A stretch of 52,019 nt of DNA, from IMG/VR virus record IMGVR_UViG_2724679140_000011, positions 1 to 52,019 of that record; one strand, given 5' to 3'. Below the pieces are notes generated by a model. That model searched no databases and was not told the DNA's origin. It worked only from the letters and a program-made list of their open reading frames with translations. Both the position numbers and the translations under genes were made by a program. Below are positions 10,912-28,846 of the stretch, piece after piece; position 1 is the first letter of the stretch, and every line of letters starts with the position of its first letter. The DNA comes from a virus. Taxonomy: Duplodnaviria; Heunggongvirae; Uroviricota; Caudoviricetes.

Positions 10912-11658
10912 ATGAACACAGTAACGATCAATAACAAACAGCTTCCGGCAGTCGAATATCGCGGTCAGCGTGTTGTGACGCTGGCGATGATTGATGAAGT
11001 CCACCAGCGACCGGAAGGAACCGCAAGCGCTGCTTACCTTCGTAACAAAGAGCGTTTTGTTGAAGGAATTGACACGTATCTTATTGAATATTCAGAAAAC
11101 AACGTATTACGTCCTTTCAATGTTGATGTGCCTTTTCGCGGCCTGAGAGTATTTACGGAAACTGGGTACTTGATGCTTACTAAGCCATTCAACGATGATT
11201 TGGCCTGGAAGGTTCAGCGCGACTTAGTTAACGCCTACTTCCGTACTCGCGCACCGCTAACGGAAATCGAGATGATCGCCGCGATGGCCGCCGACGCCGT
11301 TCGTCAACAGAAGCGCCTGAATCATGTGGAAGAGCAGATCGAAACAGTCACAGAAGCGGTGGAAACCATCAAACGCGGAAATATGCGCGCCGGATATGTC
11401 GGTTATCGCCAGGTGGTCGCCAAAAGCGGAATGACTGATGCCAAGTGTCGCAATCTGGTCAATGCCTACAGCATCCCAACCGATACGCACGAATTTATGA
11501 CACCTGATGGTCTTCTTTCGCGCCGGGCTATCGTGGAGCTGGAGCCGTTCATGAAAGCATTTCATCAGATGATGTCAGAGGCAGAGCCACGCGGCACACG
11601 CTGGTATCACCCGAAGATGGGACTTTTCCAGGTGATCGGATGGGAGGATAAAGCATGA
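10912..11658 (+). CDS. ORF6N/antirepressor-like domain protein
   Basis: N-terminal RVVTLAMIDEVHQRPEGTASAAYLRNKERFVEGIDTYLI resembles the ORF6N pattern; aggagg SD upstream. Confidence 0.55.
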   Translation: MNTVTINNKQLPAVEYRGQRVVTLAMIDEVHQRPEGTASAAYLRNKERFVEGIDTYLIEYSENNVLRPFNVDVPFRGLRVFTETGYLMLTKPFNDDLAWKVQRDLVNAYFRTRAPLTEIEMIAAMAADAVRQQKRLNHVEEQIETVTEAVETIKRGNMRAGYVGYRQVVAKSGMTDAKCRNLVNAYSIPTDTHEFMTPDGLLSRRAIVELEPFMKAFHQMMSEAEPRGTRWYHPKMGLFQVIGWEDKA

Positions 11659-12224
11659 TCATCCAGTCAAAACTTATTCGCGCCGCTCTGGTGTGCGCTG
11701 CTAAAAACGACGTTCGTTATTACCTGAACGGTCTTCACATCACGCCAAAACATATTGAGGCAACCAATGGTTTCGTAGCACTGCGCATGACTCACGGCAT
11801 CCGGACGAAGAAAAACATCATTGTCCAGTTCGAAGGTGGCGTCCCGGCCAAAGCCGAAACGACAGAGCTAATTTTCAGTAAAGAGCCGATCGCTGTTCAT
11901 CGCGACCAGTTTCAGCGACGACTGTCCATTACCGGCATTAAATTGGTGGACGGTTGTTTTCCGGATTTGGAACGCATCATTCCGAAAAAGTTTGACCTCT
12001 GTACTCACCCGGTGATCCAGGCTGGTTACCTGAGTTATCCAGAGAAGATGTTTGGTCGTGAGCGTAAATTTATTCCCGTCCAGTTACGTCCCTCCGGTGA
12101 CGGGCAAGCGGTCAGAATTCAGTTTGATTCCATCATCAACTCAATGTATGGCAATCCTGAATTTGTTGTGATGCCTTGTCGTGATCATGACGATTTCAAC
12201 GTAGCTCAGGAGCATCCGGAATGA
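11655..12224 (+). CDS. hypothetical protein, 189 aa
   Basis: Overlapping start with upstream stop. Confidence 0.55.
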   Translation: MIIQSKLIRAALVCAAKNDVRYYLNGLHITPKHIEATNGFVALRMTHGIRTKKNIIVQFEGGVPAKAETTELIFSKEPIAVHRDQFQRRLSITGIKLVDGCFPDLERIIPKKFDLCTHPVIQAGYLSYPEKMFGRERKFIPVQLRPSGDGQAVRIQFDSIINSMYGNPEFVVMPCRDHDDFNVAQEHPE

Positions 12225-12445
12225 AAATCGAATACCAGGACTACGGAGCCGTAGCGAACATCGTGATCACCAGCACTGTGTTCGAATTTCGTAAACATAA
12301 CCGGGTGGTGGATGCTACGTTGCTTTGTTCGCCGGACGTCATTGCAACTCACAGTGGCGTGTTTTTCATGAAGTCGGTTTTATCCGGTAAAACCCGCGAT
12401 ATGTTGCGGGCATATAAAACAGTTCAACAGGAGGCAGGACGATGA
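12221..12445 (+). CDS. hypothetical small protein
   Basis: Translationally coupled ORF. Confidence 0.4.
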   Translation: MKIEYQDYGAVANIVITSTVFEFRKHNRVVDATLLCSPDVIATHSGVFFMKSVLSGKTRDMLRAYKTVQQEAGR

Positions 12446-13074
12446 GTAACAAAATTAAAAACCCGGTTGTGCTTATTCATAAGCGTGAAAACAGCGACAC
12501 CTACGCAGTCGCAATCACCAGCGGTAGCCAGGACTATCACGATGCCGTTCTGATGGCGACCATGGAGCCAGACATGACGGGGGATAGCATCGATACCTGG
12601 AGTAAAACCGGCTATTACATGGCTGAAGAAATCGAGCGACTGAAACAAGCACTGTCCGCTGCGGAAAATAATCTGATTGATTCCGAATGCCTCGTCGCTG
12701 AATTAAGCAAAGCAAAGGATCACGCATATGGGCTGGTCGACACATACGACTGGCAACGTCAGCGTCTCCACACAGCCGCTGAGAAAGTCATCAAATGGTG
12801 CAGACAAGAAGCTGAACACCGTACCGGCGATCCAGAGAAAGCAGAAAACTATGCGTGCGTTAAAGAACTACGCGTCGCATTAACTTTTTGCAAAAGTTCT
12901 GGAGACATCAGGAAGAAAGGTCTGACCATCACCCTGCCCGATATCACATCAAAGGCATTCTGGAGCGGCACTGGAAAAAGCGCAAAATTCCATCCGGAAA
13001 CCTATAAACGCTGGGTGAAAGAAGCTATCAAACGGGATTGTGTTATTGCCGGGATCGGCGTGGAGGTGAAATGA
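12442..13074 (+). CDS. hypothetical protein, 210 aa
   Basis: ORF with aggagg SD upstream. Confidence 0.55.
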   Translation: MSNKIKNPVVLIHKRENSDTYAVAITSGSQDYHDAVLMATMEPDMTGDSIDTWSKTGYYMAEEIERLKQALSAAENNLIDSECLVAELSKAKDHAYGLVDTYDWQRQRLHTAAEKVIKWCRQEAEHRTGDPEKAENYACVKELRVALTFCKSSGDIRKKGLTITLPDITSKAFWSGTGKSAKFHPETYKRWVKEAIKRDCVIAGIGVEVK

Positions 13075-13161
13075 TGAATTGGCCTGAAGCATTCACCGCA
13101 GTAGGAGTTGCAATAGCGGTGGCATTTATTCTGTATTCACTTTTCCGCTGGGGATAAAGGA

Positions 13162-13404
13162 ATGTTCGCTCTGATTCAAAGTGGTCAGATATACACCGAT
13201 AGTGCTGGCTACCCGATAAAAATTATTCGCTGCATAAACAACTCTGTGTTGTACAGAAGAATGGATGGGCGAACACAGTCGGTAAAAATAAACGATTTTA
13301 ATGAACTGTTTGAACGGATCGATCACCAGGAATACCGACAAATTCTGGCAGAAACAGAGCAGGAAGCTCATTTGAAAAAATTACGAGCCATGAAAAGGAA
13401 GTAA
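13162..13404 (+). CDS. hypothetical small protein
   Basis: ORF in operon upstream of xis/int. Confidence 0.45.
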   Translation: MFALIQSGQIYTDSAGYPIKIIRCINNSVLYRRMDGRTQSVKINDFNELFERIDHQEYRQILAETEQEAHLKKLRAMKRK

Positions 13405-13562
13405 AGAATGAATAAAGCGTTTGAGCTATGGGTACACCAGCGTTACGGAAATCGCTATGACCTGACACGAGATGTTGACGGTTTCTACTGTCGTGAAATT
13501 GTGAGGCGAATGTTTGAAGTGTGGTGCCACTGTCGTGGGCTGAATATTGTGTGAGGTGAACT

Positions 13563-13772
13563 GTGGGGCTGGATTGCGTACCTATATCAACCTACTGCCG
13601 CAACGCGGGAGAAACGCTTGATGCCGTTAACAAACGGATACAAAGAGGAATATGGAAAGAAGGGGTACATGTATTAAAAGTCGACGGAGTTAAAGAACGT
13701 TGGGTCGACTTAATGGAGATTACAAAATGGGCAAGAAAGAACAAGGATCATTATCTCTCCCTAGAGGAGTAA
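13563..13772 (+). CDS. excisionase-like (Xis/AlpA-type) small DNA-binding protein
   Basis: 69-aa basic protein immediately upstream of and overlapping the integrase; GTG start with gaggtg SD. Confidence 0.45.
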   Translation: MGLDCVPISTYCRNAGETLDAVNKRIQRGIWKEGVHVLKVDGVKERWVDLMEITKWARKNKDHYLSLEE

Positions 13773-14905
13773 CTATTCGCCAGCATAAAACTGGCAGCAC
13801 CCTGGTTATCACTTTTACATATAAAGGGGTTCTGTGTCGGGAGCCCCTCTCCAGAATGGAAGCAAACGCGCGCGGTGTGAAGTACGCCGAGCGCCTGCTC
13901 GGGGAGATACAAAACCAGATCGTCAGTGGCACCTTTGAATATGCGAAATATTTCCCCAACTCCAAAAAGCTGGAGCTGTTCGGGGTGGTGAAGAAAACCA
14001 AAAACATAAAGTCCTACCTGGACGAGTACCTGAAAATCTGCCAGAACCGCAACCTGTCCCCGTCGACTATAAATGGTTATGAAAAATGCCTGTCGGCACT
14101 GTCAGCTCTGCATAAACTCCACGTGTCAGAACTGACGCCAGCGGTCCTTAAAAACTGGATAGCCAGCCGGAAAACAAAGCTGAAAACGACCAGGAATAAC
14201 CTTTCGTTTCTGCGCAGCGCCATTGATGAAGCTGTTACGGATGGCCTGCTGACCATTAACCCGGTAACCCTCGTCAGCGCCAGCCGGTACCACGTGATCG
14301 ACAGCAGCCCGAGCGCCGACGATTACGAGGTTGACCCGTTCACGCCAGCGGAGACCCTTGCCATTTACCAGAGCTGCAGGTACACGGAATGGGAAAACCT
14401 GTTCCGCTTTGCTTTCAATACAGGTCTGCGGAGCTCAGAACTGTGCGCGCTGCGCTGGGCTGATCTCGACACCATCGCGAACACAGCCCACGTTCAGGCG
14501 GCCAGTGTCGTAGGGATACTTAAAGGCACCAAGACAAAAGCCGGTACCCGTAAGGTGGAGCTGAACAGTGAGGCGCTGGCGGCCCTGCAGGCGCAGAAGC
14601 AATACACCTTTATGAAAAGTGAGTTCATATTCAGCGATCCGAAAACGGGAGAACCCTGGACGAACGCCGACGCTATCCGTAAAAAAGCATGGGTGCCGAC
14701 CCTGAAAAAAGCTGGTGTGCGCTACCGTAACCCGTACCAGACGCGCCACACATTCGCCACCAGACACATTAGCCAAGGTGTAAACCTTTTCTGGCTTGCC
14801 GGGCAGATGGGGCATAAGGGGCCGGAAATGCTGTTCCGCAATTACGGTAAATACCTGGCTGAATACGACGGGAAAACCGCAATGGAAGCTGGAATGAAGA
14901 AGTGA
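13700..14905 (+). CDS. tyrosine integrase, lambda-Int type (probable start 13727)
   Basis: C-terminal catalytic region with ...RHTFATRHISQGVNLFWLAGQMGHKGPEMLFRNYGKY (R...H..R..Y). Confidence 0.85.
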   Translation: MGRLNGDYKMGKKEQGSLSLPRGVTIRQHKTGSTLVITFTYKGVLCREPLSRMEANARGVKYAERLLGEIQNQIVSGTFEYAKYFPNSKKLELFGVVKKTKNIKSYLDEYLKICQNRNLSPSTINGYEKCLSALSALHKLHVSELTPAVLKNWIASRKTKLKTTRNNLSFLRSAIDEAVTDGLLTINPVTLVSASRYHVIDSSPSADDYEVDPFTPAETLAIYQSCRYTEWENLFRFAFNTGLRSSELCALRWADLDTIANTAHVQAASVVGILKGTKTKAGTRKVELNSEALAALQAQKQYTFMKSEFIFSDPKTGEPWTNADAIRKKAWVPTLKKAGVRYRNPYQTRHTFATRHISQGVNLFWLAGQMGHKGPEMLFRNYGKYLAEYDGKTAMEAGMKK

Positions 14906-14911
14906 TTTGAA

Positions 14912-14940
14912 GAAAAAACCCGGTAAATGCCGGGTCTGTT
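14912..14940. terminator. bidirectional rho-independent terminator
   Basis: acccgg-taaatg-ccgggt hairpin with A6 upstream and T-rich downstream, between convergent int and 14947..15714. Confidence 0.5.
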
Positions 14941-14946
14941 TGATGG

Positions 14947-15714
14947 TTATTCTGTCGCGCCACCTATCGAAACATAATCATGAAATTGATCGTCAATGAG
15001 TCGGTCCTTACAGATAACATGTACAATGTGACGACAACAGTTTTCATCATCATACGCACGACCCCAGCGAACAATCTCATCTACAGACAGATCATTCGCA
15101 CTCCATGGCAAAGTACCTGAAACACCACGCGCACCTGGACCAAGTATGTCCATAAATTTCTTCGTGCGTGAATTGTAGATCCGTACCTCGGCAATTCGAA
15201 TGATGCTACTGGCCCAAAGAGCACCACCGGCAATACTTTGAATGTTATCGCAGATGAGAAACTCATGCTTTCGCGCAAGCATTTTATAGATCTCACGCGC
15301 CAAACCTGCTGATTGGAAATCCTGTGCGATAACAGCGCTTTTCACTTGCTTTCCGGTCATCATCTGACCGTTCTCTTCGATAAAATTAAAGTCGTTGAAC
15401 TGTATACGACCTATTCTTATCGTTTTGTTATCGTCTACCATATCAAGACCCAAGAGGGTATTGACCAGATCCTGCATTGGAACCTTCGAATCAAGAAGGT
15501 CACTGCCATAGTCTAAAAAAAAGTCGTCGGTGGAACATCCCAGTTGATACACATCCAAGTAGTACTGAAACTCACCAGAACTGACAATGTACTCATCAGC
15601 CCTCAGTAAGCCAGCCTCGGCAGTGAAAAAATAGAATGACTCAATAAGACGTTTTTCGCCAAATGGCGTGATGTTCAAGTCCTTGTTATATGAAGGTATT
15701 AACGCAGGAGCCAT
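14947..15714 (-). CDS. hypothetical protein, 255 aa (cargo operon gene 2)
   Basis: 12 bp downstream of the 113-aa gene; lies between prophage integrase and the ssrA att copy. Confidence 0.6.
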   Translation of the reverse strand: MAPALIPSYNKDLNITPFGEKRLIESFYFFTAEAGLLRADEYIVSSGEFQYYLDVYQLGCSTDDFFLDYGSDLLDSKVPMQDLVNTLLGLDMVDDNKTIRIGRIQFNDFNFIEENGQMMTGKQVKSAVIAQDFQSAGLAREIYKMLARKHEFLICDNIQSIAGGALWASSIIRIAEVRIYNSRTKKFMDILGPGARGVSGTLPWSANDLSVDEIVRWGRAYDDENCCRHIVHVICKDRLIDDQFHDYVSIGGATE

Positions 15715-15725
15715 TCAGCAACCTT

Positions 15726-16067
15726 TTAATGGTAGTTAATTTCCCTGTAGTTCTTCTGCATGTATAGAGCAATTGCCGCTTCAATTTTCTTCAGCAGATT
15801 ACTGCTTACATACTGAGGATACTGATCTGCTGGCTTCACAACATAGCGCAATTTTTCTTTGTTCATGGCGATCTCAGCGAACGGGATCACGTCACCGTCA
15901 CGAACTTCATTGTTCAATGTCACAATAAACAGCTGACGTGCCGGGGAGACACGATCACTCAGTCTTCTCACGAAGAACTCGTTTGCTGTGTTTGAGTCAA
16001 CAAAAGAACTGACGAGTTGAGTCCGACGCTCAATCGTCTGTATCGATCTTCTCGCTACTGTTCTCAT
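15726..16067 (-). CDS. hypothetical protein, 113 aa (cargo operon gene 1)
   Basis: gaggagac SD before ATG; preceded by two strong palindromes. Confidence 0.6.
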   Translation of the reverse strand: MRTVARRSIQTIERRTQLVSSFVDSNTANEFFVRRLSDRVSPARQLFIVTLNNEVRDGDVIPFAEIAMNKEKLRYVVKPADQYPQYVSSNLLKKIEAAIALYMQKNYREINYH

Positions 16068-16109
16068 GCTAGTCTCCTCAACACTTCACTGGCTGTGCAG
16101 TGAAGGTAC

Positions 16110-16143
16110 AAAAAGCCACTGATGATAACAGCGTCATCAGTGG
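16110..16143 (-). terminator. 10-bp-stem hairpin followed by T5 on the minus strand, in the leader of the cargo operon
   Basis: ccactgatga-taacagcg-tcatcagtgg; a second 8-bp palindrome sits at 16084-16105. Confidence 0.35.
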
Positions 16144-16401
16144 CCCTTGATGGTGATAACCGCGGTTATCTAAATAGTATGATATTACCTTACGGGTAAT
16201 TCTTCAACGATTGCTCTGAATTGAATAGTCTTGAAGTGCTATGAACAGCACAAAACCGTGCTAATCACCGCCCCAGTGGCGCCTAAATATTTCAAAATGT
16301 TGGACAGAATCAGGACGTTAGAGGTACTACGATATGCACGTAAAATGCACGTGAGGTATTTTAAATTAGAAAAATCATTAACATTCAATTGGTTAAGCAT
16401 T

Positions 16402-16437
16402 TTTCGGATACGGGTTCAACTCCCGCCAGCTCCACCA
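16402..16437 (+). repeat. tmRNA (ssrA) 3'-end fragment, attachment-site core copy
   Basis: ggttcaactcccgccagctccacca matches the E. coli ssrA 3' terminus as recalled; upstream flank is not ssrA. Confidence 0.75.
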
Positions 16438-16544
16438 AATAATGATCCGGATACGTCCGGTGAAGTACAGAAAGCCCGCATGGCACAAGCCCTGCGGGCT
16501 TTTTTGTGTTTGTCGTTGTCCGAGAACATCCGGCTAAATCCGAT

Positions 16545-16600
16545 GATTATTGGTATACGTTTCGGTATACGGTAGGATGTATACCTAAAAGCGTATACCA
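16545..16600. promoter_or_regulatory. GGTATAC repeat cluster (2 direct + 2 inverted) upstream of integrase; candidate arm-type sites/operator
   Basis: ttggtatacg...ggtatac...gtatacc...cgtataccaa read directly. Confidence 0.4.
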
Positions 16601-16621: not shown

Positions 16622-17821
16622 GTGGCACGGACAACACGCCCCCTGACCAACACCGAAGTTCTGCGCGCGAAAGCGTTAGAGAAGGATCTAACGCTGCATG
16701 ATGGCGATGGGCTTTTCCTGATAGTGAAAACTAGCGGCAAGAAACTCTGGCGCTTTCGCTATCAACGCCCAGCAACAAAACAGCGGACTATGATGGGACT
16801 TGGTGCTTTTCCTGCCCTTTCTCTTGCTGATGCCCGAGGGTTAAGAGCAGATTACCTTGCCCTATTAGCCAACGGAATCGACCCGCAAATTCAAGCTGAA
16901 GTTGCAGAGGAACAGCAGCAAATCGCTCTGGACAGTATTTTTTCGACGGTCGCCGCTAACTGGTTCCAGCTCAAAAGCAAAAGCGTTACCCATGATTACG
17001 CTAAAGATATATGGCGTTCACTGGAAAAAGACGTATTCCCCACCATCGGGGAGATCCCTGTCCAGCAAATCAAAGCCCGAACACTGGTTGAAGCCCTTGA
17101 ACCGATCAAAGCTCGTGGGGCGCTGGAGACGGTGCGCCGGTTGGTGCAGCGTGTTAACGAGATAATGATTTATGCCGTAAATACTGGTCTTATTGATGCC
17201 AATCCAGCATCAGGCATTGGAATGGCCTTTGAGAAGCCAAAAAAACAAAATATGCCTACGTTGCGCCCAGAAGAATTGCCTATGCTGATGCGTTCTCTCG
17301 TCATGTCAAATTTGTCTGTTCCGACTCGCTGCCTCATTGAGTGGCAACTCCTGACTCTAGTTCGTCCTTCTGAGGCTTCCGGTGCTAGGTGGGCTGAGCT
17401 CGATCTCGATGCAAAGCTCTGGACTATCCCAGCTGAACGAATGAAGGCTAAGCGGGAACACATAGTCCCTCTATCTCCTCAGGCATTAGAGATTCTTGAT
17501 GTGATGAAGCTAATCAGTGCCCATCGTGAACATGTTTTCCCGAGTCGGAATGACCCAAAGCAACCAATGAATAGCCAGACGGCAAATGCTGCTTTAAAAA
17601 GGATTGGATTTGGTGGTAGATTGGTTGCTCATGGATTGCGTTCAATTGCCAGCACCGCATTAAATGAAGCGGGTTTTAATGCAGATGTAATTGAGGCTGC
17701 TCTTGCACATAGTGATAAAAATGAAGTGCGCAGAGCATATAATCGTTCAACTTACCTTGAGCAACGAATAGGACTTATGAATTGGTGGGGCCAAAAAGTG
17801 TACGAGCGCAATCAATATTAG
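16622..17821 (+). CDS. P4-type tyrosine integrase (CP4-57 IntA-like)
   Basis: N-terminus MARTTRPLT...DGDGLFLIVKTSGKKLWRFRY typical of P4/IntA-like integrases; adjacent to ssrA att copy. Confidence 0.9.
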   Translation: MARTTRPLTNTEVLRAKALEKDLTLHDGDGLFLIVKTSGKKLWRFRYQRPATKQRTMMGLGAFPALSLADARGLRADYLALLANGIDPQIQAEVAEEQQQIALDSIFSTVAANWFQLKSKSVTHDYAKDIWRSLEKDVFPTIGEIPVQQIKARTLVEALEPIKARGALETVRRLVQRVNEIMIYAVNTGLIDANPASGIGMAFEKPKKQNMPTLRPEELPMLMRSLVMSNLSVPTRCLIEWQLLTLVRPSEASGARWAELDLDAKLWTIPAERMKAKREHIVPLSPQALEILDVMKLISAHREHVFPSRNDPKQPMNSQTANAALKRIGFGGRLVAHGLRSIASTALNEAGFNADVIEAALAHSDKNEVRRAYNRSTYLEQRIGLMNWWGQKVYERNQY

Positions 17822-17850
17822 TTAACTTGTTATACATGGAGATATAGTTC

Positions 17851-18309
17851 ATGGAGAATAATCTAGATAATTTATGTTATGAATTCTTTAGAGAGTTTTC
17901 ACGTTATGAATATTGCCTTAAGGCATGTGGACTTCATCATAAAATAAAAGATGCTAAAGCGAACTGGGATGAGTATGCAAAGCAAGTTTCTGAAATCATA
18001 AATAACACAACTGATCCAGAGCTAATTGCTGCTATCACCTACTTTAAAGAACACCCACCCAAAAAACAAATCATAGAAGATGACTCTTTAGTTTGGGATG
18101 ATTCTTTACCACAAGAAAAAGATTTAGCAAAATTTCTTTTTTTGTTAATCCGCCGTGTAAGAAACAATCTTTTTCACGGAGGAAAATTTAACGGGAAATG
18201 GTTTGAACCTGAACGTAGTGAGGCGTTACTGCAACATGGCCTTGTTATTTTGAGGCATTGCGGCACAAGGCATAGTGAAGTAAGCAAAGCCTATTCTGGA
18301 ATAGCCTGA
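17851..18309 (+). CDS. hypothetical protein, 152 aa, AT-rich
   Basis: ORF in AT-rich cargo block, convergent with the helicase gene. Confidence 0.5.
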   Translation: MENNLDNLCYEFFREFSRYEYCLKACGLHHKIKDAKANWDEYAKQVSEIINNTTDPELIAAITYFKEHPPKKQIIEDDSLVWDDSLPQEKDLAKFLFLLIRRVRNNLFHGGKFNGKWFEPERSEALLQHGLVILRHCGTRHSEVSKAYSGIA

Positions 18310-18401
18310 GCGGTGTTATAAAAGAGAAGTTTTTGTTACTGGAAGAATGATAAAATTCAAAAACTTCTCTATTGATTGTTTAAAAAATCGTCTAAATAAG
18401 A

Positions 18402-20984
18402 CTATTGTACCCAAAAGTTACGAAATATATTATGTATTTCGTTTTGAACTAATTGTGGCAGTTCTTCCATGTCAACTTTATTGTCCTTAATCCAATTAAT
18501 GCATTCTTCCTCATCTAAACTATCATTAGGAATAAGCTCTGAAATCATTACAGCAGCAGTTCTTGAAAAGCCAAGCCCTATTAGTGAAATCTGAGTTTTT
18601 AAACTTACACCCAGTTCTAAATAAACACCGATATCTTCAACATCTTTTGCTAAGTCTGTGCGATCTATCGAAAGATAAAAGCTTTTTAATAAATCATTAT
18701 AACATCCTAAAAGCCTTGGAGCTTGATAGCGAGCGATCTCTTCAACATCCTTCATAACCCCTCGTATTAAAGTCGCTTCTTTGAAAACAATATTTTTCTT
18801 TTTGTTATATCTTATTCTATCCGAGATCAATCTTGCTAGGGGATAACCTTTCATCCACTTGGAAACTAACAAGGCCTGTACGTAAGCTCCTTTTGAATTA
18901 TAACCTAGCTTCTTACTCAGAGTATCACTAATTCTAGAGAATGCGGATACATATGAATCTAACGCATCATTACTACCAGGTTCAGAAAGCAGTAATCTCT
19001 CTACAGGTTTGTTTGTATCCCGCGAAAATCTATCCCAAAGGTTTTGCATTAAAAGCGGGCTTATACCAGGATGCCGCACAACCAATTCGTGTGGAAAAGT
19101 TAAAGAATCAAAAACATCAAATATTGCTTCATTTAAAACATCGATATTTTTTATATTGTACTTTTCCATGTAAGGATTATTATCCAAGCCATTATAAAAA
19201 TAAAATGATGAACATAAATAACTAAATAGACTCTGGAGATTAGGATTCCGCTCAGACATACCAAAATGATGCTCTGAAAAAATATAGGAAACCAACTTAT
19301 CCATGTCATGGGAAATAGCATCCGTGGCGCGAGTTATAAATATATTTTTTTTGGTTTTTGGAGGCTCTCCATTCCAAATTTTTTCATTGTCGCTATCGAT
19401 GCAGATGACATTACCTTGGAATTCTTTTCCCCAACGACCAGCTCTGCCAGCAAGATTCCAAAAATCCTCTTCTCGCATCGGGGTTGAATTACCCTTTTTA
19501 GGGCCTCTTATAAAAATATTTTTACAAGCCATGTTTACGCCCTCAACTAAAGTTGAGGTACAAATTAAAAAATCAATCTTACCTTTACTAAACAATCGTT
19601 CAATCTCGCCCTTTATTATTAAAGGCATGTTGCCATAATGAAAAGCGACTCTCTTTTTTAGAGTGCGATTTAATGCGAAATTTTTATGTATAATTGTCTC
19701 ACTAAGCTCAACGAGAGCTAAAATTTCTTCATCCTCAGTCTCATTTTCTATACTTGCAGATATTAGCTTGGAAGTAGATTCTGCTTCAGCGGCTCCATTT
19801 ACGTAAACTACGTTACCAGAAGCCCCCTTACCTAAACAAAGAGCTACAAAAGGCAATCTTTTACTTTCAGGAGATGGTGCATTTTCTAAAGAAAAGTTTC
19901 CTAACTCGCGTTTTTCACCGTTTGCAAAATAATACATCAACCAATCTTTGGTCTTGCGTGGTTTTTGTTCTACCCATATTAAATTTTGATTAACTGTAAC
20001 ATAGTCACTTTTTATAGTTCTTTTGTTTTTTAATATTGGAGCATCACTGAGCAATATTTCAGGATTTAAGGTGAAAGGACTTGCAAAGATAACTTTTGAA
20101 TCAGGGTTATTTAGACAAGTCAGTTCAATTACATGTTGAAGAATAACACCTCTTCCACCATCACCGATCTTGTGTGCTTCATCAACAACTAAGACGTCTA
20201 TCTTTGGAATTTGTGAGAAATGATTGTAGAATAAATTTAATCTTTCCTGTGTAAATATGAAGACATTAGATTTTTCGCTCTGGTATACATTACTCAATGG
20301 TAGTGTCTGAATATTAACTATATTTGTTAAATTAGGATCCAAACGTTTTTGCAACTCAGAATATACTTCTGAAATCAATGCCCTTGTTGGTACGATATAA
20401 ATAACTAAGCAATTCTTATTTCTTTTTACAAACTGCTCCACCCAAGATTCCAGGATAAATGATTTTCCTACAGAGGTAGGAGCAGAGACACTAACCCATG
20501 AGTTTTCTTGTACCGCATCCCAAAACTCTGATTGAAACCTATTAGCATAAATATGCTTATCAGCATCTATTTCAATTGTATATAGAATTTTTCTTTTAGT
20601 TAGTTCTAACTGAGCCTTTAAGGGTAATCTTTCTTCGAAATCAGGGTTAAGATACCCCCTATTTTCAGCAAGTTGTATTGCTGGATTATTAGATAATGAA
20701 TCAAGAATTAATGCAGCACTATCTTTTCTTGCTTCACTTTTTTCATTCAATAAGCAATACTGTGCAATCCTTAAGGCTGCATCTTGGCATTTCTCATCAC
20801 TTGAGAAAGCCAAAGAACTAGCACATGTTAAAAGATAGCCGACATCCTCAGAACTAATCTGTGGGATTACATCTGATTTTAACTCTGGAAATTGATCTTT
20901 TATCGAGTTAGCGACTAATGCCTGATATTTTCTTAAGAATCCTTGATTCTTAATCAACCACCCAGATAAATCTCGCAACGACAT
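18402..20984 (-). CDS. SF2 helicase, 860 aa (Hachiman HamB-like)
   Basis: Walker A APTSVGKS, DEAH box VVDEAH, motif VI LAGRAGRWG; start overlaps upstream gene stop. Confidence 0.8.
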   Translation of the reverse strand: MSLRDLSGWLIKNQGFLRKYQALVANSIKDQFPELKSDVIPQISSEDVGYLLTCASSLAFSSDEKCQDAALRIAQYCLLNEKSEARKDSAALILDSLSNNPAIQLAENRGYLNPDFEERLPLKAQLELTKRKILYTIEIDADKHIYANRFQSEFWDAVQENSWVSVSAPTSVGKSFILESWVEQFVKRNKNCLVIYIVPTRALISEVYSELQKRLDPNLTNIVNIQTLPLSNVYQSEKSNVFIFTQERLNLFYNHFSQIPKIDVLVVDEAHKIGDGGRGVILQHVIELTCLNNPDSKVIFASPFTLNPEILLSDAPILKNKRTIKSDYVTVNQNLIWVEQKPRKTKDWLMYYFANGEKRELGNFSLENAPSPESKRLPFVALCLGKGASGNVVYVNGAAEAESTSKLISASIENETEDEEILALVELSETIIHKNFALNRTLKKRVAFHYGNMPLIIKGEIERLFSKGKIDFLICTSTLVEGVNMACKNIFIRGPKKGNSTPMREEDFWNLAGRAGRWGKEFQGNVICIDSDNEKIWNGEPPKTKKNIFITRATDAISHDMDKLVSYIFSEHHFGMSERNPNLQSLFSYLCSSFYFYNGLDNNPYMEKYNIKNIDVLNEAIFDVFDSLTFPHELVVRHPGISPLLMQNLWDRFSRDTNKPVERLLLSEPGSNDALDSYVSAFSRISDTLSKKLGYNSKGAYVQALLVSKWMKGYPLARLISDRIRYNKKKNIVFKEATLIRGVMKDVEEIARYQAPRLLGCYNDLLKSFYLSIDRTDLAKDVEDIGVYLELGVSLKTQISLIGLGFSRTAAVMISELIPNDSLDEEECINWIKDNKVDMEELPQLVQNEIHNIFRNFWVQ

Positions 20985-20985
20985 T

Positions 20986-21927
20986 TCAACTCTCCAATGC
21001 TTTAATTAAACTAGCCCTAAATGCTTTTACTGAAGGAAAAGGAAGAATAAAAACATGCATAGCAAAGCGATCAAGTTTTTTATTAACTATACCACCTTGC
21101 ACACTAGTTGACCATTTCCCGACTTTAGTATTAATCAAAGCAACTAGTTCACTGATATCAATTGAACTGGGCCCTTGTGGATAATCTTTAAGATCAAACC
21201 CAACTAAGCATATTCCTCTGTATTCCAATTTATTAAAATCCGGGCTATCAGGATCTAAGAATCTTTTCAACGCTTGTTCTAGTTCTATATCATCAACATT
21301 TAAGTGCGACTCCAGCAACTGCATATCACGTGTCTCAGCGCCTTCTATTCCCATAGAACTTTGAAGTAATGGAGCTATACTATCCATACACTCAGAAATA
21401 CCTTTGCTCAGATTGGAATAGAGTTTAGACTCGCCCCAGTATAAACATAATTTTTTATTATCTTTATCTACGCCTATATGTATTCCATCTGCACCATGGT
21501 AATGCATTTGAGAACTCGTTTTCAGGCTCATTTTGCAAATAATTTGTGGAAATCTAAGGAATTGCTCTGCAAATAAAAAAAGAATAAATTCACCGCCTTC
21601 GCCACTATTTGCAAGCCTAGTAAATAATTTTTTTGCTTGATTTGCTAATTTTGTTATTTTCGCTGTTGATTGTGTTTCATTAAAATATTGCACTGCCTCA
21701 TTGATTTTTTTCCTTGGAATAGCATAATCAACTACTTTATCGTTCAAGAATTGGATTAACGCGTCTACCCGAGGACGTCCATTGCCATCAAGATTAAGGC
21801 AATGAAAATGACAAGTTGCATTTGTATTTTCAATCAATGAATTAACTTTAACTTCACTAAAATAACTATTTAGTGTTTGACCATCATCTCTAATCAGATT
21901 TTCAAGCGCGACATGCAGTGCATCCAT
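20986..21927 (-). CDS. putative PD-(D/E)xK-like nuclease partner, 313 aa (Hachiman HamA/DUF1837-like, tentative)
   Basis: Candidate D...ExK motif (GVDKD...WGESK); immediately upstream of and coupled to the helicase. Confidence 0.6.
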   Translation of the reverse strand: MDALHVALENLIRDDGQTLNSYFSEVKVNSLIENTNATCHFHCLNLDGNGRPRVDALIQFLNDKVVDYAIPRKKINEAVQYFNETQSTAKITKLANQAKKLFTRLANSGEGGEFILFLFAEQFLRFPQIICKMSLKTSSQMHYHGADGIHIGVDKDNKKLCLYWGESKLYSNLSKGISECMDSIAPLLQSSMGIEGAETRDMQLLESHLNVDDIELEQALKRFLDPDSPDFNKLEYRGICLVGFDLKDYPQGPSSIDISELVALINTKVGKWSTSVQGGIVNKKLDRFAMHVFILPFPSVKAFRASLIKALES

Positions 21928-22120
21928 GAGTAGGTCCTTGCATATTTTATTTTCCTCATCATTTGCAATATATACTTATTTCAATAGCTTGCAACATTTT
22001 TACTCGACAATGATACTTACACCACACTCGCTGCTTAAAATCATTGTTATCGCTTTAACGTGATAAACGATTCTTTCAATCAGGTACTCATTGAAAGTTA
22101 AAAGTTACTTTGACCATACA

Positions 22121-22156
22121 CAGCGTGCGCTGCCCCGCCCGCCTGCCCGCTTCGCT
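22121..22156. other. cos-like site (P2/P4-type cohesive end region)
   Basis: Reverse complement gggcaggcgggcggggcagcgcac resembles recalled P2/P4 cos GGCGAGGCGGGGAAAGCAC; lies between cargo and delta. Confidence 0.4.
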
Positions 22157-22304
22157 TAACAGACTGGTTTTCATGCACCCCGTAAATCGTCTCAGAAGCC
22201 ACCACACAAGGGCTTTCGCGTCAAAAATGGCGCATGAGACTCATGCGTTTTCATGCGCTATAGATATGCACTCATACGCCTTCAGGCCAGCCAGGGAAAA
22301 GGCG

Positions 22305-22330
22305 TAAAAAATCCCGGTACTGGACCGGGA
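22305..22330 (-). terminator. rho-independent terminator after the delta gene
   Basis: tcccggtactggaccggga hairpin followed by T6 on the minus strand. Confidence 0.5.
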
Positions 22331-22352
22331 CTACGTGGGCGTATTTTGCTAA

Positions 22353-22625
22353 TCAGACAGGAATTAGCTGACGGCTTGACAGCTTTGACGCGGAGCCATA
22401 GCGGTTGAGAGTTTGCTGTTGTTTTTCTGGCATTTGTTCTTTGTCTGATTCCTGTTCATTGCGCCAAGGCTTCATAATTATCGTATCCACGCTTTCCAGA
22501 GCGGTAAATGTGCAGGAACATTCCAGATTCTGGCACTGATACCATGAGCGTTTAACCGATGGAGCTTCATAGGCGCTGGTTCTGGCGTGAGCGACCGTCC
22601 CACATTCAGGACACTTCAGGGCCAT
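22353..22625 (-). CDS. Ogr/Delta-family zinc-finger late transcription activator
   Basis: MALKCPECG...HARTS...YQCQNLECSCTF matches the Ogr/Delta CxxC...CxxC pattern; perfect aaggagg SD before this ATG. Confidence 0.8.
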   Translation of the reverse strand: MALKCPECGTVAHARTSAYEAPSVKRSWYQCQNLECSCTFTALESVDTIIMKPWRNEQESDKEQMPEKQQQTLNRYGSASKLSSRQLIPV

Positions 22626-22626
22626 A

Positions 22627-23181
22627 TCAGTACCCTCCTTTTTCATTAAGTCGGTTAAGGCGGGCCAGGAAAACTTTATGTTGTGCCGGGGTGAAACTGG
22701 TTGAAGCATCAGCGTACATTGATGCATCCACCGTTAATCCGGTTTCGTCGATAATGCTCTTGTATGCTGCTGAAATTACCGGAGTACGCACTTCCGTTTG
22801 TCGGGCTACAGCGGTTCGTAATATTTTCATTGCCGCCTCAAGCCCGTATGGAGCGCAAAGAAAAGGAGCCAGTGCGTCAGTGAGTGCATCACCATGCTCG
22901 CTCATGAAGTTTTCCGTTGCGCTTGTAACACAACTCTCCAGCACAATCTGGTGAGCATAAAGACCATCCCGTGCAGCACAGTTAATCTGCCATTCGAGGA
23001 CAGCAAGACGCTCACGAAGCTCCTCAAGCTGGCTGGCATATGCTGCCGGTTTTTCTTCAGTATTCAGCAGAGCCGCCAGACGAAGCTGGTAGGTACTTTG
23101 CGTATTACGTAGTGTCAGCCAGCTTTTTATCGCCGAGCGGTAATCGTTGAGAGCTTCCTGAGTAATGGTTCCGGCATTCAT
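22627..23181 (-). CDS. psu: Psu-like polarity suppression / capsid decoration protein
   Basis: 184 aa; HG.AL..ALAP and C-terminal FTPAQ..F segments resemble P4 Psu as recalled; adjacent to delta. Confidence 0.6.
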   Translation of the reverse strand: MNAGTITQEALNDYRSAIKSWLTLRNTQSTYQLRLAALLNTEEKPAAYASQLEELRERLAVLEWQINCAARDGLYAHQIVLESCVTSATENFMSEHGDALTDALAPFLCAPYGLEAAMKILRTAVARQTEVRTPVISAAYKSIIDETGLTVDASMYADASTSFTPAQHKVFLARLNRLNEKGGY

Positions 23182-23963
23182 TTCTTCTCGCCCCCTTTAA
23201 CCATGTCACGCTGTTTAAGCATCCGTGAACGCGCTGCAGGGCTGGGGGATTGTCTGGCATCCTGGATGGCTTTATCGTCCGCATAAATGCTGATCCCCGG
23301 CAGGGTAATATCATCCGTTGAAGATACGTTACAGGACAGTACCGGAGTGGTGAGTTGCTCGCTGATAAATTGCTTCAGCACACTTTCGGGGTCGTTTACG
23401 GTATGAACTACACCGATAACAGCAGAAGCGCTTCGGCCCAGAGTCATTTTCAACAGTCCAAGGATCTGAATAAGTTTCTGGCCGTGTTCCTTCATAAACT
23501 CATTCCAGAGCCACACTGCATGAGTTTCAATCAGGCGATTATGTTCGCTGATGTAGTGGTTTGCAGCATCCGCAGTTTTCCAGGGCAGGAATTCATTTTC
23601 TGCCACCTGAGCTGCCAGCAAATCTTCGAACTCATCCAGTGTTTCGCGTCCGAGGGCGATTTCTGCCCGCAGTTTTTTCATGCGTGGTGTCATATTTCCC
23701 TGATTCTCACGAAACAGGTTTCGCCATTCATCATTAAGCGCCTGCGTTTCCGTTTTTGTATCTTCCTGACGTTTACGGATAGTTTCAATCATTGCAGCAG
23801 CTTCAGTTTGTTTTCGCCGTTCTTCCTGCCAGACAGCTTTTGCTGCCTTAACTTTTTCCACCGCTTCGCGAATTTTCGGCGGGAGGGAGGATGTAATGTT
23901 TGCATCAGAGATCTGGTTAACAGTAGTCATGAATGCTCCGGTAGTGTTTTGTTGTCGTGTCAA
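23178..23963 (-). CDS. Sid-like coiled-coil protein (size-determination scaffold), tentative
   Basis: 261 aa, charged coiled-coil-like central region; first gene of the sid/psu/delta-type operon. Confidence 0.4.
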   Translation of the reverse strand: MTRQQNTTGAFMTTVNQISDANITSSLPPKIREAVEKVKAAKAVWQEERRKQTEAAAMIETIRKRQEDTKTETQALNDEWRNLFRENQGNMTPRMKKLRAEIALGRETLDEFEDLLAAQVAENEFLPWKTADAANHYISEHNRLIETHAVWLWNEFMKEHGQKLIQILGLLKMTLGRSASAVIGVVHTVNDPESVLKQFISEQLTTPVLSCNVSSTDDITLPGISIYADDKAIQDARQSPSPAARSRMLKQRDMVKGGEKK

Positions 23964-24089
23964 TTGTGCCGATGCCCATACAAGCGCACTACCGAGGGGG
24001 ATTGTGTCAGTGACAGAACAATGACCTTGTTCTGGCTAGCCAGAGAAATGTGTCATGTCTGATCTTCAACTTTCCTTTAATAAATACTA

Positions 24090-24300
24090 TTCACTACTGT
24101 TCACTTTGATAAAAAAATTGATAATACAGCTAGTTAAGAGGTGAAGGGTTGACAAGGCAGTATTCAGTGACTGTTCATGAGTGTTCATCGGAAGGTAGCG
24201 TGATTTATGATTTTTTTTCATCAAAAGTGAAATTTTTATTCCGAATGATTATTTCATTATTGTTCCTCACAACTATTCACCACTCTTCAGTAGTATTCAA
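24090..24300. repeat. iteron cluster of TGTTCAC-like repeats (P4 ori/crr-type, tentative) within a late promoter region
   Basis: tgttcac, tattcac, tgttcat and gtgaag copies read repeatedly in both orientations. Confidence 0.45.
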
Positions 24301-24843
24301 CAGATGATGAAATAGACGATTTTTCTTTGCCGGGAAATAACATGATTCCCCCCTTTCCCTGGTGTTGCATTTCAATCTGATTTTTATAAAACTAGAACTG
24401 CTCGGTCTTTTATGAATTTATTTGGATATATTTTTAGGTTAAGAATGCGTGGTTATTGATTTTATGCGGTTCTAATTCTTCTGAGCTTGATGCAATTCAT
24501 GAGTATATCCTGAAGTTAGGTTTGCAATGTAAAGCCATATGTAGAAATTGTGCATCCCTGCTGAATGGGTTGCGGTTTCAGTACCATTAAGTTCTATGAC
24601 TTATGGGGTAGTAACCCCTGGATGAAAGTTAGTTCCTATTAATGTCCCTGTATTTATAGTTCGCAGACATAATATCTATCATGCCATTTTATGTGGTTTG
24701 ATATAGTTTTAAATTCCATTAAATCAATATGTGACGCTAAATAAATAATGGGTGCGTAAGCGAGAAATATATACATAATAAGGAACTACCTGAATCCGGG
24801 GGGATTTATCCGGACTGATGAAGGAATTAAAGAGGGTAGATAA

Positions 24844-25104
24844 ATGCATGATATTTCTGTTTCTGCGCCAGCTCCGGCTGCGCCATTATTTCCTGTGCTG
24901 AACCAGCATGAGCGATTTTTACGTCTTCCCGAGGTGATGCATTTATGCGGCTTGTCCCGCTCAACTATATACGACCTGATAAGCCGCGATGCTTTCCCGA
25001 AGCAGATCCCGCTTGGTGGTAAAAATGTTGCCTGGGCACAGTCAGAGGTAAGCGCATGGATGGCGGATCGTATAAGTGCCCGCGGACGGGGATGTGATGC
25101 ATAA
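24844..25104 (+). CDS. AlpA/Vis-family small DNA-binding regulator
   Basis: [48 protein letters not shown] is an AlpA-type HTH. Confidence 0.7.
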
Positions 25105-25655
25105 TGATGCCTGAACGCATTAATCCCCATTTTTCTGGCTTGCATCCTGCAGTCATTTCCAGGTATAGTTTTTCCGCTGCCGCAAAATCGGCAGCCGGAA
25201 TTGGCGTTCCGCGAAACTCAATGGCGACACCAGACGCGCCAAGCGTCTTTTTTTTCGTCGAAGCTCTGGCACACCCATTTTCCAGGCTGTGGTGTTTATG
25301 CGTACACCGTGGTTCTTTCGAGATAATGGCAGTCCGGGCGGGGCAGCCTTCGGGCTGGCCGGTATCCATTGAGGCCGGTTACGCCAACCCCGTTCGGGCT
25401 GCCACCAGTGAAATTGGCGTTTCCGGTGGTAGCAATAACCGCTACTCAATGGAGGCTGCCATCATGGCTACAACCCTCACCCCGTTTTACCCGCAATATG
25501 TCTTTGTGCTTGCCGCAATCCGCCGTGCTGACACTCAACCCCGCATCTGTATGCTTCGCACCGTGGCCTGCGATGAGCGCTTTGCACGCCTTTCGCTGGT
25601 CCGTGATTATGTGCTCTCCCTTTCTGCACGGCTGCCTGCCGGGGAGGTGATGTGA
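25104..25655 (+). CDS. hypothetical protein (P4 early region; start uncertain)
   Basis: ORF in GC-rich region; several overlapping frames, weak call. Confidence 0.3.
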
Positions 25656-25879
25656 TGAATCACGCCGCAATTTCTTATGACGATATTGTCCGCCTCAAGC
25701 ATCTTCGTAACGTGGGGGAATTTGTCACCGGAATGGCTGTTCTTCAGGACTGCTATGAAAAACCTGCAGGTGCTCAATGTGAGCAACTGGTTTCCCTGAT
25801 TTATCTGATGACAGAACAGCTTGATGGCGTGGTACAGCGTTGCCAGGATGACCTGATGAACAAGGAGGTGGTGCAATGA
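25652..25879 (+). CDS. hypothetical small protein
   Basis: Start overlaps upstream stop. Confidence 0.35.
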
Positions 25880-26199
25880 AATCACGCACTCTTCCCCTCT
25901 CACTTCGGCTGGCGTTATATCGCCGCGCGGTTGCCTGCGCCTGGCTGAGTATCTGCCATCAGCACAACCGCCACCTGCAGCTCACTCTGGATGAAATTGA
26001 AACCGCCATTGCCCGTGAGCTTGAAGGTTTTTATCTGCGACAGCACGGGCAAACAAAAGGCATGGAAATCGCCTGCGCCCTGCTTTCAGACCTGATGGAA
26101 TCCGGTCCTCTAATGTCCTGCCCCGCACTCTCCCAGCTCGGAATAGCCGTAATGGATGAGTTATGCGTCCGTCACATTATAAAGCCGGTTTTACACTGA
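25876..26199 (+). CDS. hypothetical small protein
   Basis: Start overlaps upstream stop; precedes alpha. Confidence 0.35.
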
Positions 26200-28547
26200 G
26201 GGAGAACTGCATCATGTCAGGAATGAAAGTCAGTCAGGCCGTGAAGGCTGCCCGCGGTCACTGGGCGCGGATTTTGCCAGCGCTGGGTATGAACATACTG
26301 AAAAATCGCCATCAGCCTTGTCCGGTCTGCGCCGGTAAAGATCGTTTTCGCTTCGACGATCTGGAAGGACGTGGAACATGGTTCTGCAACCAGTGCGGGG
26401 CTGGGGACGGTTTAGCGCTTGTCAGCAAGGTACTGAATGTGGATATCAGTGAAGCAGCAGACAGGATACATGGACTGACACATAGTCTGTCTTCAGCCTC
26501 TTCTGGAGTCTGGACGTCAACCGCAGATACAGATGGCGGGAAACAGGCGGCAGCAGCACTTGCCGCGCGACTACTGCAAGCCTCGCGTGAATCTGCCGGA
26601 AATACTTATCTTACACATAAAGGTTTCCCGGAGCATATTTGCCATGAGCTGACTTCAGGTCATAAAACCGGTGGGGTGATGTTCCACCCCGGTGATTTGA
26701 TCGTCCCGCTCTATAACGCTGACGGGGAACTGGTGAATATTCAGCTTATCAGTGGCAATGGTAGCAAGTGTTTTCTTAAAGGAGGTCAGGTTAAGGAGGC
26801 CTATCATCTGATAGAAGGGGGCGGGAGTTCTGTAAGAAGGATGTGGATTGCGGAAGGTTACGCCACGGCGCTTACCATTCGTCATCTGACAGGAGAAGCC
26901 GTCATGGTGGCATTTTCGTCGGTCAACTTTCTTTCTCTGGCCAGCGTTGCCCATAACAAGTATCCGGGATATCAGTTAATTATTGCAGCGGACCGCGATC
27001 TGAATGGTTCAGGCCAGAACAGGGCTGAAACTGCTGCAAAAGCGTGTCAGTGTGACATTGTGCTGCCACCGGTTTTTGGTGACTGGAATGATGCGCTTAC
27101 CCAATACGGAGAGGAATCCACCCGGAAGGCAATTCTTGAGGCTTTGAAGCCACATAACGCCAGTCCTTTCGACACAATGAGTGAAGCAGAATTCACAGCG
27201 ATGAGTGTCAGCGAAAAAGCTCAGAGGGTTCGGGAGCATTACAGGGATGCACTGGCGGTTGATCCGAACGGGCAGCTTTTATCCCGCTACGAGTCTGGAG
27301 CGTGGAAAGTGATTTCTCAGTCAGATTTTGCCCGAGATGTCGCAGCCCTTTTCCAGCGCCTCGGTGCACCGTTTTCCTCAGGAAAAATTGCTTCACTGGT
27401 GGAAACATTAAAGTTAATTGTTCCGCAGCAGCAAAATCCGGCACGTCATCTGATCGGTTTTCGTAATGGCGTCCTCGATACGCGAACAGGGCTGTTTAGT
27501 CCGCACTGTAAAGAGAACTGGCTGCGTACCCTGTGTGAAGTCGATTTCACGCCACCGGTAGAGGGGGAAACGCTTGAAACTCATGCCCCGGCATTCTGGC
27601 GCTGGCTGGACCGGGCTGCCGGACACAAGCCAGAAAAACGCGACATTATTCTTGCGGCGTTATTTATGGTGCTGGCGAATCGCTATGACTGGCAGCTCTT
27701 TCTGGAAGTGACTGGCCCTGGTGGAAGTGGCAAAAGTATTCTGGCTGAAATTGCGACCATGCTTGCTGGAGAGGATAACGCCACCTCTGCGACCATTGAA
27801 ACGCTGGAGTCCCCGCGAGAACGTGCGGCTCTGATAGGTTTTTCTCTTATTCGCCTGCCTGATCAGGAGAAGTGGAGCGGCGACGGCGCCGGGCTTAAGG
27901 CTATAACTGGTGGCGATGCGGTATCGGTGGACCCCAAATATCAGAATGCTTATTCAACACATATTCCGGCGGTTATCCTGGCCGTAAATAATAATCCTAT
28001 GCGCTTCACTGATCGCAGTGGTGGTGTGTCCCGCAGGAGAGTTATTCTGCATTTTCCTGAGCAGATAGCACCGGAAGAACGCGATCCGCAGCTGAAAGAT
28101 AAAATTGCACGAGAACTGGCTGTGATTGTTCGCCAGCTCATGCAGCGTTTCAGCGATCCGATGAGCGCCAGAACATTGCTTCAGTCGCAGCAGAATTCTG
28201 ATGAGGCTCTCACCATCAAGCGTGATGCTGATCCAGCATTTGATTTTTGTGGCTATCTTGAGGCATTACCTGACACCAACGGCATGTTTATGGGGAACGC
28301 CAATATTGTCCCACGCCAGCCACGTACCTACCTTTACCATGCCTACCTCGTATACATGGAGGCTAATGGATATAAAAACACCCTGAGTCTTACGATGTTT
28401 GGCAAAGGGTTGCCAGTCATGCTGAAGGAGTACGGGCTACATTATGAGAAACGGCGAACTAATCAGGGAATGCAGACTAACCTCACTTTAAAAGAGGAAA
28501 GTAATGCAGACTGGCTACCCAAGTGCGATGAGCCAACAATCAAATAA
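26163..28547 (+). CDS. P4 alpha-like primase-helicase (zinc ribbon + TOPRIM + D5-type helicase); probable start 26214
   Basis: [53 protein letters not shown], Walker A GPGGSGKS. Confidence 0.85.
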
Positions 28548-28565
28548 TTACAACTAACCCGGCTG

Positions 28566-28593
28566 ATGCCGGGTTTTATTTTTGCTGGCACAA
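28566..28593 (+). terminator. rho-independent terminator after alpha
   Basis: cccggctgatgccggg hairpin followed by ttttattttt. Confidence 0.5.
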
Positions 28594-28607
28594 GAATGTA
28601 GAGTTAT

Positions 28608-28690
28608 CTGTTCACTCTTCACCGTACAGTTAACTTCTATTTCCTTGATTTTGAATGGTAAAAATCCAAAGTGAACAGTGTGAACAATTT
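28608..28690. repeat. second TGTTCAC/GTGAACA iteron cluster (crr-like, tentative)
   Basis: tgttcactcttcacc and gtgaacagtgtgaaca. Confidence 0.4.
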
Positions 28691-28764
28691 ATTGAAAAAA
28701 GAGTTTTTTTGAATATAGAAGACCTATTTAGCGTGATTTTTTTAAAGTTCAATAAGTATTGCAC

Positions 28765-28790
28765 CCCGCTATTGGTATACGCTTAGGTAT
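28765..28790. promoter_or_regulatory. GGTATAC direct repeats near right end of the P4-like element (candidate arm-type sites)
   Basis: ttggtatacgcttaggtatac, same 7-mer as at 16545-16600. Confidence 0.3.
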
Positions 28791-28846
28791 ACAAACAAAA
28801 ACAACTTAAATAAATAACCAATTAAAACATAGATATAACATACAAA

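Follow-up and report, generated by a model that had tools for sequence, protein, structure and literature searches.

What does a nuclease-like gene coupled to a helicase gene do among the cargo of a P4-like satellite? The question is raised by positions 18402–21927 of a 52,019-nucleotide stretch of viral DNA (Caudoviricetes; IMG/VR record IMGVR_UViG_2724679140_000011, positions 1 to 52,019), termed here the window. The locus is a two-gene operon which, with a probability of about 90%, is an intact type I (I-A) Hachiman system, carried by a P4-like satellite of the smpB/ssrA region of Escherichia coli as accessory cargo of its psu/cos-int hotspot. The system, its location and its database annotation were all previously known.

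The hamAB operon and its family

The two genes and the junction between them are:

20986–21927, minus strand: hamA, a 313-amino-acid DUF1837 PD-(D/E)xK nuclease, the putative effector (RefSeq WP_016809718.1, named DUF1837 domain-containing protein)
18402–20984, minus strand: hamB, an 860-amino-acid superfamily 2 (SF2) Ski2/Hel308-like helicase, the putative sensor (RefSeq WP_016809719.1, named DEAD/DEAH box helicase)
20982–21000, minus strand: hamA stop/hamB start junction with an internal GGAG Shine-Dalgarno sequence and a one-nucleotide spacer (sequence ...ggagagTTGAaATGtcg)

Both open reading frames (ORFs) lie exactly where an earlier reading of the sequence alone (the sequence-only reading) had placed them. 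Frames of 313 and 860 codons are far longer than chance would produce in DNA of 35% GC, and each has hundreds of homologues. At the junction, the hamA TGA occupies 20988–20986, base 20985 is the spacer and the hamB ATG is at 20984–20982; GGAG is found 9–10 nucleotides 5′ of this ATG, within the 3′ end of hamA. Because of the one-nucleotide junction and the GGAG inside the hamA end, the translational coupling claimed earlier is plausible. The genes are adjacent and on the same strand, which is the arrangement by which PADLOC and DefenseFinder pair Hachiman type I genes.

Family membership is seen in both proteins over their full length. HamA residues 2–312 align with positions 3–312 of the 314-position PADLOC profile HamA1 (PDLC00163, E = 9.5e-136), and the protein matches Pfam PF08878, HamA/DUF1837, at 207.7 bits (E = 2.9e-61, cut-off 25). 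HamB residues 1–856 align with positions 1–860 of 864 in HamB1 (PDLC00186, E = 0, 1135 bits); its Pfam domains are DEAD and Helicase_C. The PADLOC type I models score above those of type II for both proteins, at 450 versus 355 bits for HamA and 1135 versus 943 bits for HamB. Helicase motifs I, II and VI (APTSVGKS, VVDEAH and LAGRAGRWG), which the sequence-only reading had picked out, are all present and intact in the 860-amino-acid translation.

The profile comparisons that the same reading had proposed, of the 313-amino-acid protein with DUF1837/HamA and of the helicase with HamB, thus gave a strong match in each case, and for HamA the fold agrees as well (see below). Its suggestion of a HamA + HamB Hachiman pair is borne out by profiles, fold and conserved catalytic residues. 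Its caution, on the other hand, can be dropped. The resemblance to Hachiman had been put down to architecture only, but it extends to sequence-level membership; a divergent or distinct nuclease-helicase system, which had been left open, is excluded by the end-to-end alignment with the type I models and by the RefSeq names already in place.

Active site, fold and subtype of HamA

Nine residues, E110, E113, K132, K136, H142, D147, E166, S167 and K168, are invariant in 35 HamA homologues that show 43–84% identity. Since they include D147, E166 and K168, the PD-(D/E)xK triad is predicted to be D147...E166-x-K168. The D...ExK motif proposed from the sequence alone stands in part: WGESK does contribute E166-S-K168, but the aspartates of GVDKD are not conserved, and the conserved acid is D147 in the segment HYHGADG.

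Sequence searches of the PDB failed or gave marginal matches, and a comparison of folds was therefore needed. An AlphaFold2 model of HamA, built on the 35-homologue alignment, has a predicted local distance difference test score (pLDDT) of 88.6 and a predicted template modelling score (pTM) of 0.89. In the model D147 starts strand 148–154, E166 and K168 are in strand 159–169, and E110 and E113 are at the N-terminus of helix 112–123. Foldseek comparison with the PDB returned a sole significant match, 8zue_A of the E. coli K-12 Hachiman/AbpA protein, with a probability of 1.00. The predicted model displays the HamA/DUF1837 restriction-endonuclease-like fold. Judged by sequence, this HamA appears to belong to a clade in which no solved representative is recognisable.

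HamA consists of DUF1837 alone; neither Cap4 nor trypsin nor any other domain is fused to the N-terminus of this 313-amino-acid protein. In type I-A, HamA comprises DUF1837 only and its (D/E)xK site is intact, whereas types I-B to I-D have fusions and have lost the active site (Cui et al., 2025; PMC11914072). The protein described here, DUF1837-only and with the PD-(D/E)xK residues retained, falls in subtype I-A.

Comparison with characterised systems

The closest solved relative of HamB is 9wh1_B, a chain of 853 amino acids (E = 3.9e-58, aligned over residues 115–815). It is followed by 8zue_B, the K-12 AbpB protein (E = 1.4e-20), and by 8vx9_B, the ECOR31 HamB (E = 5.4e-12). The characterised type I-A HamAB systems of the E. 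coli strains ECOR31 (PDB 8VX9/8VXY; Tuck et al., 2024) and DEC14B (Cui et al., 2025) belong to a different clade from that of this operon. HamB has 860 amino acids here and 1174 in ECOR31, with the match limited to the RecA2 core, and between the HamA proteins of this operon and ECOR31 no sequence match was detected.

Two other systems provide further contrasts. In AbpAB of E. coli K-12, a type I-B system (yfjL-yfjK; PDB 8ZUE; Cui et al., 2025), AbpA joins a Cap4 nuclease, at its N-terminus, to a catalytically dead DUF1837, whereas the HamA described here is unfused and its DUF1837 has a conserved active site. Type I-B was rejected on these grounds: the profile covers residues 2–312 of 313 and leaves no N-terminal extension, and the active site is kept. 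In the Hachiman-trypsin-MBL system (PDB 9WH1; bioRxiv 10.1101/2025.09.03.673762), HamA is a 528-amino-acid fusion that acts via a protease and an MBL effector. Protease and MBL genes or domains are absent from the present operon, but the two systems are linked by the closest solved HamB and by a weak match of the HamA profile to the DUF1837 part of the 9WH1 protein.

The satellite and its cargo slot

The operon is found inside an element with the following parts:

16622–17821, plus strand: P4-type tyrosine integrase of the satellite (Arm-DNA-bind_3, Phage_int_M and Phage_integrase domains)
17822–22120, no strand: variable cargo slot of 34–35% GC, from the integrase stop to the cos-like site (GC profile and homology breakpoints)
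22125–22147, minus strand: candidate GC-rich cos-like motif (GGCAGGCGGGCGGGGCAGCGCAC) at the backbone/cargo boundary, where a homology breakpoint coincides
22353–22625, minus strand: delta, an Ogr/Delta zinc-finger late activator (PF04606, E = 3.1e-16; RefSeq WP_016809717.1)
22627–23181, minus strand: psu, polarity suppression/Rho inhibitor and capsid decoration (PF07455, E = 2e-35)
23178–23930, minus strand: protein in the Sid position with a Psu-like fold (PF07455, E = 2.4e-07; RefSeq coordinates)
25176–25409, plus strand: isrK and C4 antisense RNA, which fits a P4-type immunity RNA region (Rfam RF01394, 76.7 bits; RF01695, 84.6 bits; individual matches at 25176–25253 and 25322–25409, both plus strand)
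26214–28547, plus strand: alpha primase-helicase of the satellite (Zn_Ribbon_Prim, Toprim_3, D5_N, DUF5906 and Pox_D5; RefSeq WP_016809711.1)

Further backbone genes encode an AlpA-type regulator (Phage_AlpA), an Icd/ASH-like protein (Phage_ASH) and a DUF5375 protein. The P4-like core set is complete: integrase, psu, delta, sid, alpA-type regulator, alpha primase and immunity RNA region are all found. Of the flanks described in the sequence-only reading, the P4 integrase and delta/psu are upheld by Pfam; for cos there is the GC-rich motif only. This motif resembles the P2/P4 cos sequence, but a search with the P2/P4 cos 19-mer, allowing up to three mismatches, gave no match. A blastn comparison of the cos-delta-psu-sid region with a phage collection also gave no match. 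P4 late genes are ordered sid-delta-psu. This is also the order in Klebsiella satellites that carry a 63%-identical HamAB, while the order in the present element is sid-psu-delta.

ARAGORN detects no tRNA or tmRNA over the window, and the attachment-site gene is outside it. The same element adjoins smpB, at the ssrA site, in other genomes, and from these genomes we infer that the satellite is located at smpB/ssrA of E. coli. In the window, a second integrase-bearing element stands in tandem between the satellite and the smpB/ssrA site. The tandem consists of a prophage-like element at about 1–16600, with a helicase (4559–6217), a toprim protein, an antitermination protein and an integrase (13700–14905), and of the P4-like satellite at 16622–28547.

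The cargo slot stands out in composition, as had been noted earlier in the description of an AT-rich block. GC content is 0.34–0.35 over 18–22 kb, versus 0.44–0.47 on the left side and 0.49 on the right; at 200-nucleotide resolution the low-GC block spans roughly 17800 to 22000–22200. Comparative data give the same limits. Parts of the backbone recur in about 1000 of 5426 complete E. coli genomes, where homology consistently ends near 17800, at the integrase stop, and restarts at about 22121–22131. In the two stretches compared, 16622–24000 and 28500–48500, E. coli IGC_RcoliRes_1.1 (NZ_CP054662.1) matches the window at 100% identity. In strain FREC5 (NZ_CP180702.1) the same slot, at 5523–8884, holds an AAA-family ATPase and an S8 peptidase, next to delta, psu and sid that are 99.4% identical. 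The FREC5 integrase also differs and sits at a tRNA-Leu gene, a clean swap of cargo and integrase on one backbone.

Genes hamAB are present in 20 of the 5426 complete genomes, with at least 99.9% identity, always on the chromosome and always in this slot. Across public Enterobacteriaceae contigs, exact HamA is found on 823 and exact HamB on 682. The operon is repeatedly broken: ISKpn26, an insertion sequence (IS) of the IS5 family, lies inside hamB in three genomes; hamA is truncated (227 amino acids) or split in two in strains D3, 4012 and CP133145; and IS1 interrupts hamA in one metagenome assembly. Inactivated loci include CP081706, CP010140, CP133145 and CP103626. Recurrent inactivation is consistent with the fitness cost of a costly, potentially self-toxic system.

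The location is also familiar from the literature. Hachiman has been found in P4, not in P2 (PMC13586616), and is among the psu-associated defence loci (PMC11718236, Fig. 9). The cargo site, from psu/delta/cos to int, is that of the published P4 satellite hotspot (Rousset et al., 2022, PMC9122126; PMC13586616; PMC11718236). There is no substantive difference from it; the present locus shows the sid-psu-delta order and an extra small HEPN-like ORF.

Expression and proposed mechanism

The candidate control elements, and the small ORF that shares the slot, are:

17851–18309, plus strand: 152-amino-acid HEPN-like ORF, co-resident cargo between the satellite integrase and hamB (WP_016809720.1)
18323–18370, no strand: 13-bp hairpin between the convergent ends of hamB and the 152-amino-acid ORF, a candidate bidirectional terminator (RNA fold)
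21967–21994, minus strand: sigma-70 promoter-like site, TTGCAA-16-TATATT, about 40 nucleotides 5′ of the hamA ATG (consensus scan, 9/12 matches)
22231–22247, minus strand: intrinsic-terminator-like hairpin and T-run, downstream of delta and upstream of the cos-like site and hamA

An AAGGA Shine-Dalgarno sequence is found 8 nucleotides before the hamA ATG. Promoter-like sites show no enrichment over shuffled sequences, and the site at 21967–21994 is therefore a candidate only; hamAB is probably transcribed from it. The genes are co-directional with sid-psu-delta, and Psu has been proposed to promote the expression of co-directional defence cargo (PMC11718236). Expression by read-through from this late operon is possible; both the terminator-like hairpin and the candidate promoter lie between delta and hamA. 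At the other end of the operon, the minus-strand RNA of 18305–18405 folds with a free energy of −17.9 kcal/mol (z = −3.76), and UUUUAU directly follows the stem.

A mechanism can be proposed by homology to the HamAB of ECOR31 and the type I-A HamAB of DEC14B. In ECOR31, HamA is kept inactive by HamB as long as the double-stranded DNA is intact, and damage or 3′ single-stranded DNA together with ATP-dependent helicase activity licenses HamA (Tuck et al., 2024; PMC12278908). By analogy, HamA and HamB would assemble as a 1:1 complex, and the nuclease would be restrained by HamB while the complex surveys intact double-stranded DNA. Phage infection would produce damaged DNA or 3′ single-stranded ends, which would be loaded into the Ski2/Hel308-like HamB, and its ATP-driven helicase activity would license or release HamA. 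The nuclease might then degrade DNA indiscriminately via the D147/E166/K168 site. Infected cell and phage would both die in this abortive infection, and the clonal population and the resident satellite would be protected.

Alternative explanations

Several observations weigh against the assignment or against the mechanism attached to it. A phmmer search of the PDB with HamA gave no match, and thus none at sequence level to ECOR31 HamA; the 35-sequence HamA profile picked up 9wh1_A weakly, over its DUF1837 part (E = 0.022), and again gave no match to ECOR31 HamA. With HamA lacking such a match, the mechanistic transfer rests on conservation of fold and motifs. The nearest solved HamB, 9wh1_B, comes from the trypsin-HamA/MBL variant, which has another effector logic. 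Published models also disagree, in that HamB releases HamA according to Tuck et al., whereas Tian et al. (PMC13064477) have HamA active solely in the ATP-bound HamAB complex. Evidence for the promoter and the terminator is confined to matches to a consensus or a fold, and a literature search found no experiment on this hamAB allele. Hachiman loci of ECOR04 (NZ_QOWP01000021) and ECOR28 (NZ_QOXN01000003) were assayed by Tuck et al. and might carry the allele.

The origin of these solved relatives bears on one alternative, that the DUF1837 domain is a catalytically dead scaffold, as in types I-B/C/D, AbpAB or the trypsin-HamA variant, and that DNA is not cut by this HamA. Both 9wh1_B, followed among Hachiman chains by 8zue_B, and 8zue_A, the relative of HamA by fold, come from such variants. 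The explanation is nonetheless very unlikely, as the fusions that go with those variants are missing, the triad reported by Cui et al. as lost in types I-B to I-D is invariant in the HamA clade, and the operon has no extra effector gene. Another alternative is a Hel308/Ski2-type housekeeping or repair helicase operon with an accessory nuclease and no immune role; a confident match to an unrelated housekeeping helicase operon was among the outcomes that the sequence-only reading had named as counter-evidence. HamB is weakly similar to the cores of Hel308, Ski2 and Pol-theta, but NCBIfam Hel308-type equivalogs score 62–81 bits, far under their cut-offs of 887–1216. The confinement of the operon to the satellite slot of a small number of strains, its foreign GC content and its repeated disruption by IS elements or frameshifts likewise speak against a housekeeping role, which is effectively refuted.

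The third gene of the AT-rich slot, the 152-amino-acid ORF, was absent from the sequence-only reading and raises the question of a three-gene system, in which the HEPN-like protein would work with HamAB as a regulator, an antitoxin-like brake or a second RNase effector. Hachiman type II comprises, in PADLOC terms, HamA2 and HamB2 and a third gene, HamC. This type was considered and rejected: the type I models outscore HamA2/HamB2, and the adjoining ORF has no significant PADLOC match. Searched against Pfam and PADLOC, the protein falls in no family and shows a marginal Cas8c match only (E = 0.0093), though one source labels it 'Apea-like HEPN'. An Rx4H HEPN-type motif (R104-NNLF-H109) is invariant in 21 homologues, the ORF is as AT-rich as the rest of the cargo, and exact copies and close relatives (at least 91% identity) lie, wherever read, between int and hamB. 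A comparable case is the modulation of Hachiman by PezAT in Streptococcus (PMC13064477). Against a shared system, the ORF is convergent with hamB, with the hairpin in between, and is not co-transcribed. The two-gene HamAB module is kept without extras in Klebsiella and Yersinia elements (63% identity), and in an Acinetobacter defence island (50%) beside a type I restriction-modification gene; in these homologues hamB adjoins int. Conversely, homologues of the 152-amino-acid protein with 50–65% identity occur in unrelated variable islands that lack HamAB. A three-gene system is, on balance, quite improbable.

The comparison of gene neighbourhoods speaks against the ORF as a Hachiman component, and it was concluded to be independent cargo and no Hachiman subunit. 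There is some small prospect that it either works with HamAB, by curbing the toxicity of the pair or as a second abortive effector directed at RNA, or is an undescribed mini-HEPN gene for defence or toxicity that acts alone and moves from one defence hotspot to another. As a partner it would, if this is true, make a three-component Hachiman variant. The ORF has about 700 homologues, the distant ones in variable or defence-like islands; their neighbourhoods include a Pantoea island with a resolvase and DUF2326/MC8/CTD12, the end of a lambda-like int in E. coli, and Abi_C in Rheinheimera.

Other features of the window

Two hypothetical ORFs of 255 and 113 amino acids, with no Pfam or PADLOC match, are found at 14947–16067 on the minus strand, between the integrase at 13700–14905 and the satellite. 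Their position is filled by ORFs of 271 and 127 amino acids in one other genome and by one of 265 amino acids in another. Because other genomes hold different genes there, 14947–16067 suggests a second variable cargo slot. A PADLOC and Pfam scan of the other hypothetical ORFs of the window gave nothing beyond the generic helicase similarity of the prophage helicase at 4559–6217. At the start of the window, an STnc100 small RNA match to Rfam lies at 16–224 on the minus strand.

A further AT-rich island, of 34–41% GC, extends over 33000–44500. It carries a tyrosine recombinase (35565–36881), helix-turn-helix proteins and two inovirus Gp2-like proteins (42281–43489); a 534-amino-acid hypothetical protein at 37690–39294 has no match in Pfam or PADLOC. 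The island is flanked by a frameshifted AIDA/YpjA-type autotransporter (29382–32416) and by a two-partner-secretion/haemagglutinin locus from about 45300.

Implications

The comparison with AbpAB of the K-12 element CP4-57 suggests that ssrA-linked P4-like elements of E. coli carry at least two Hachiman subtypes. With 313 and 860 amino acids, the present allele is compact and could serve as a model for type I-A, in a clade for which sequence comparison reveals no solved structure. The locus adds to the cases of P4-like satellites that shuttle abortive-infection systems through the psu-int hotspot.

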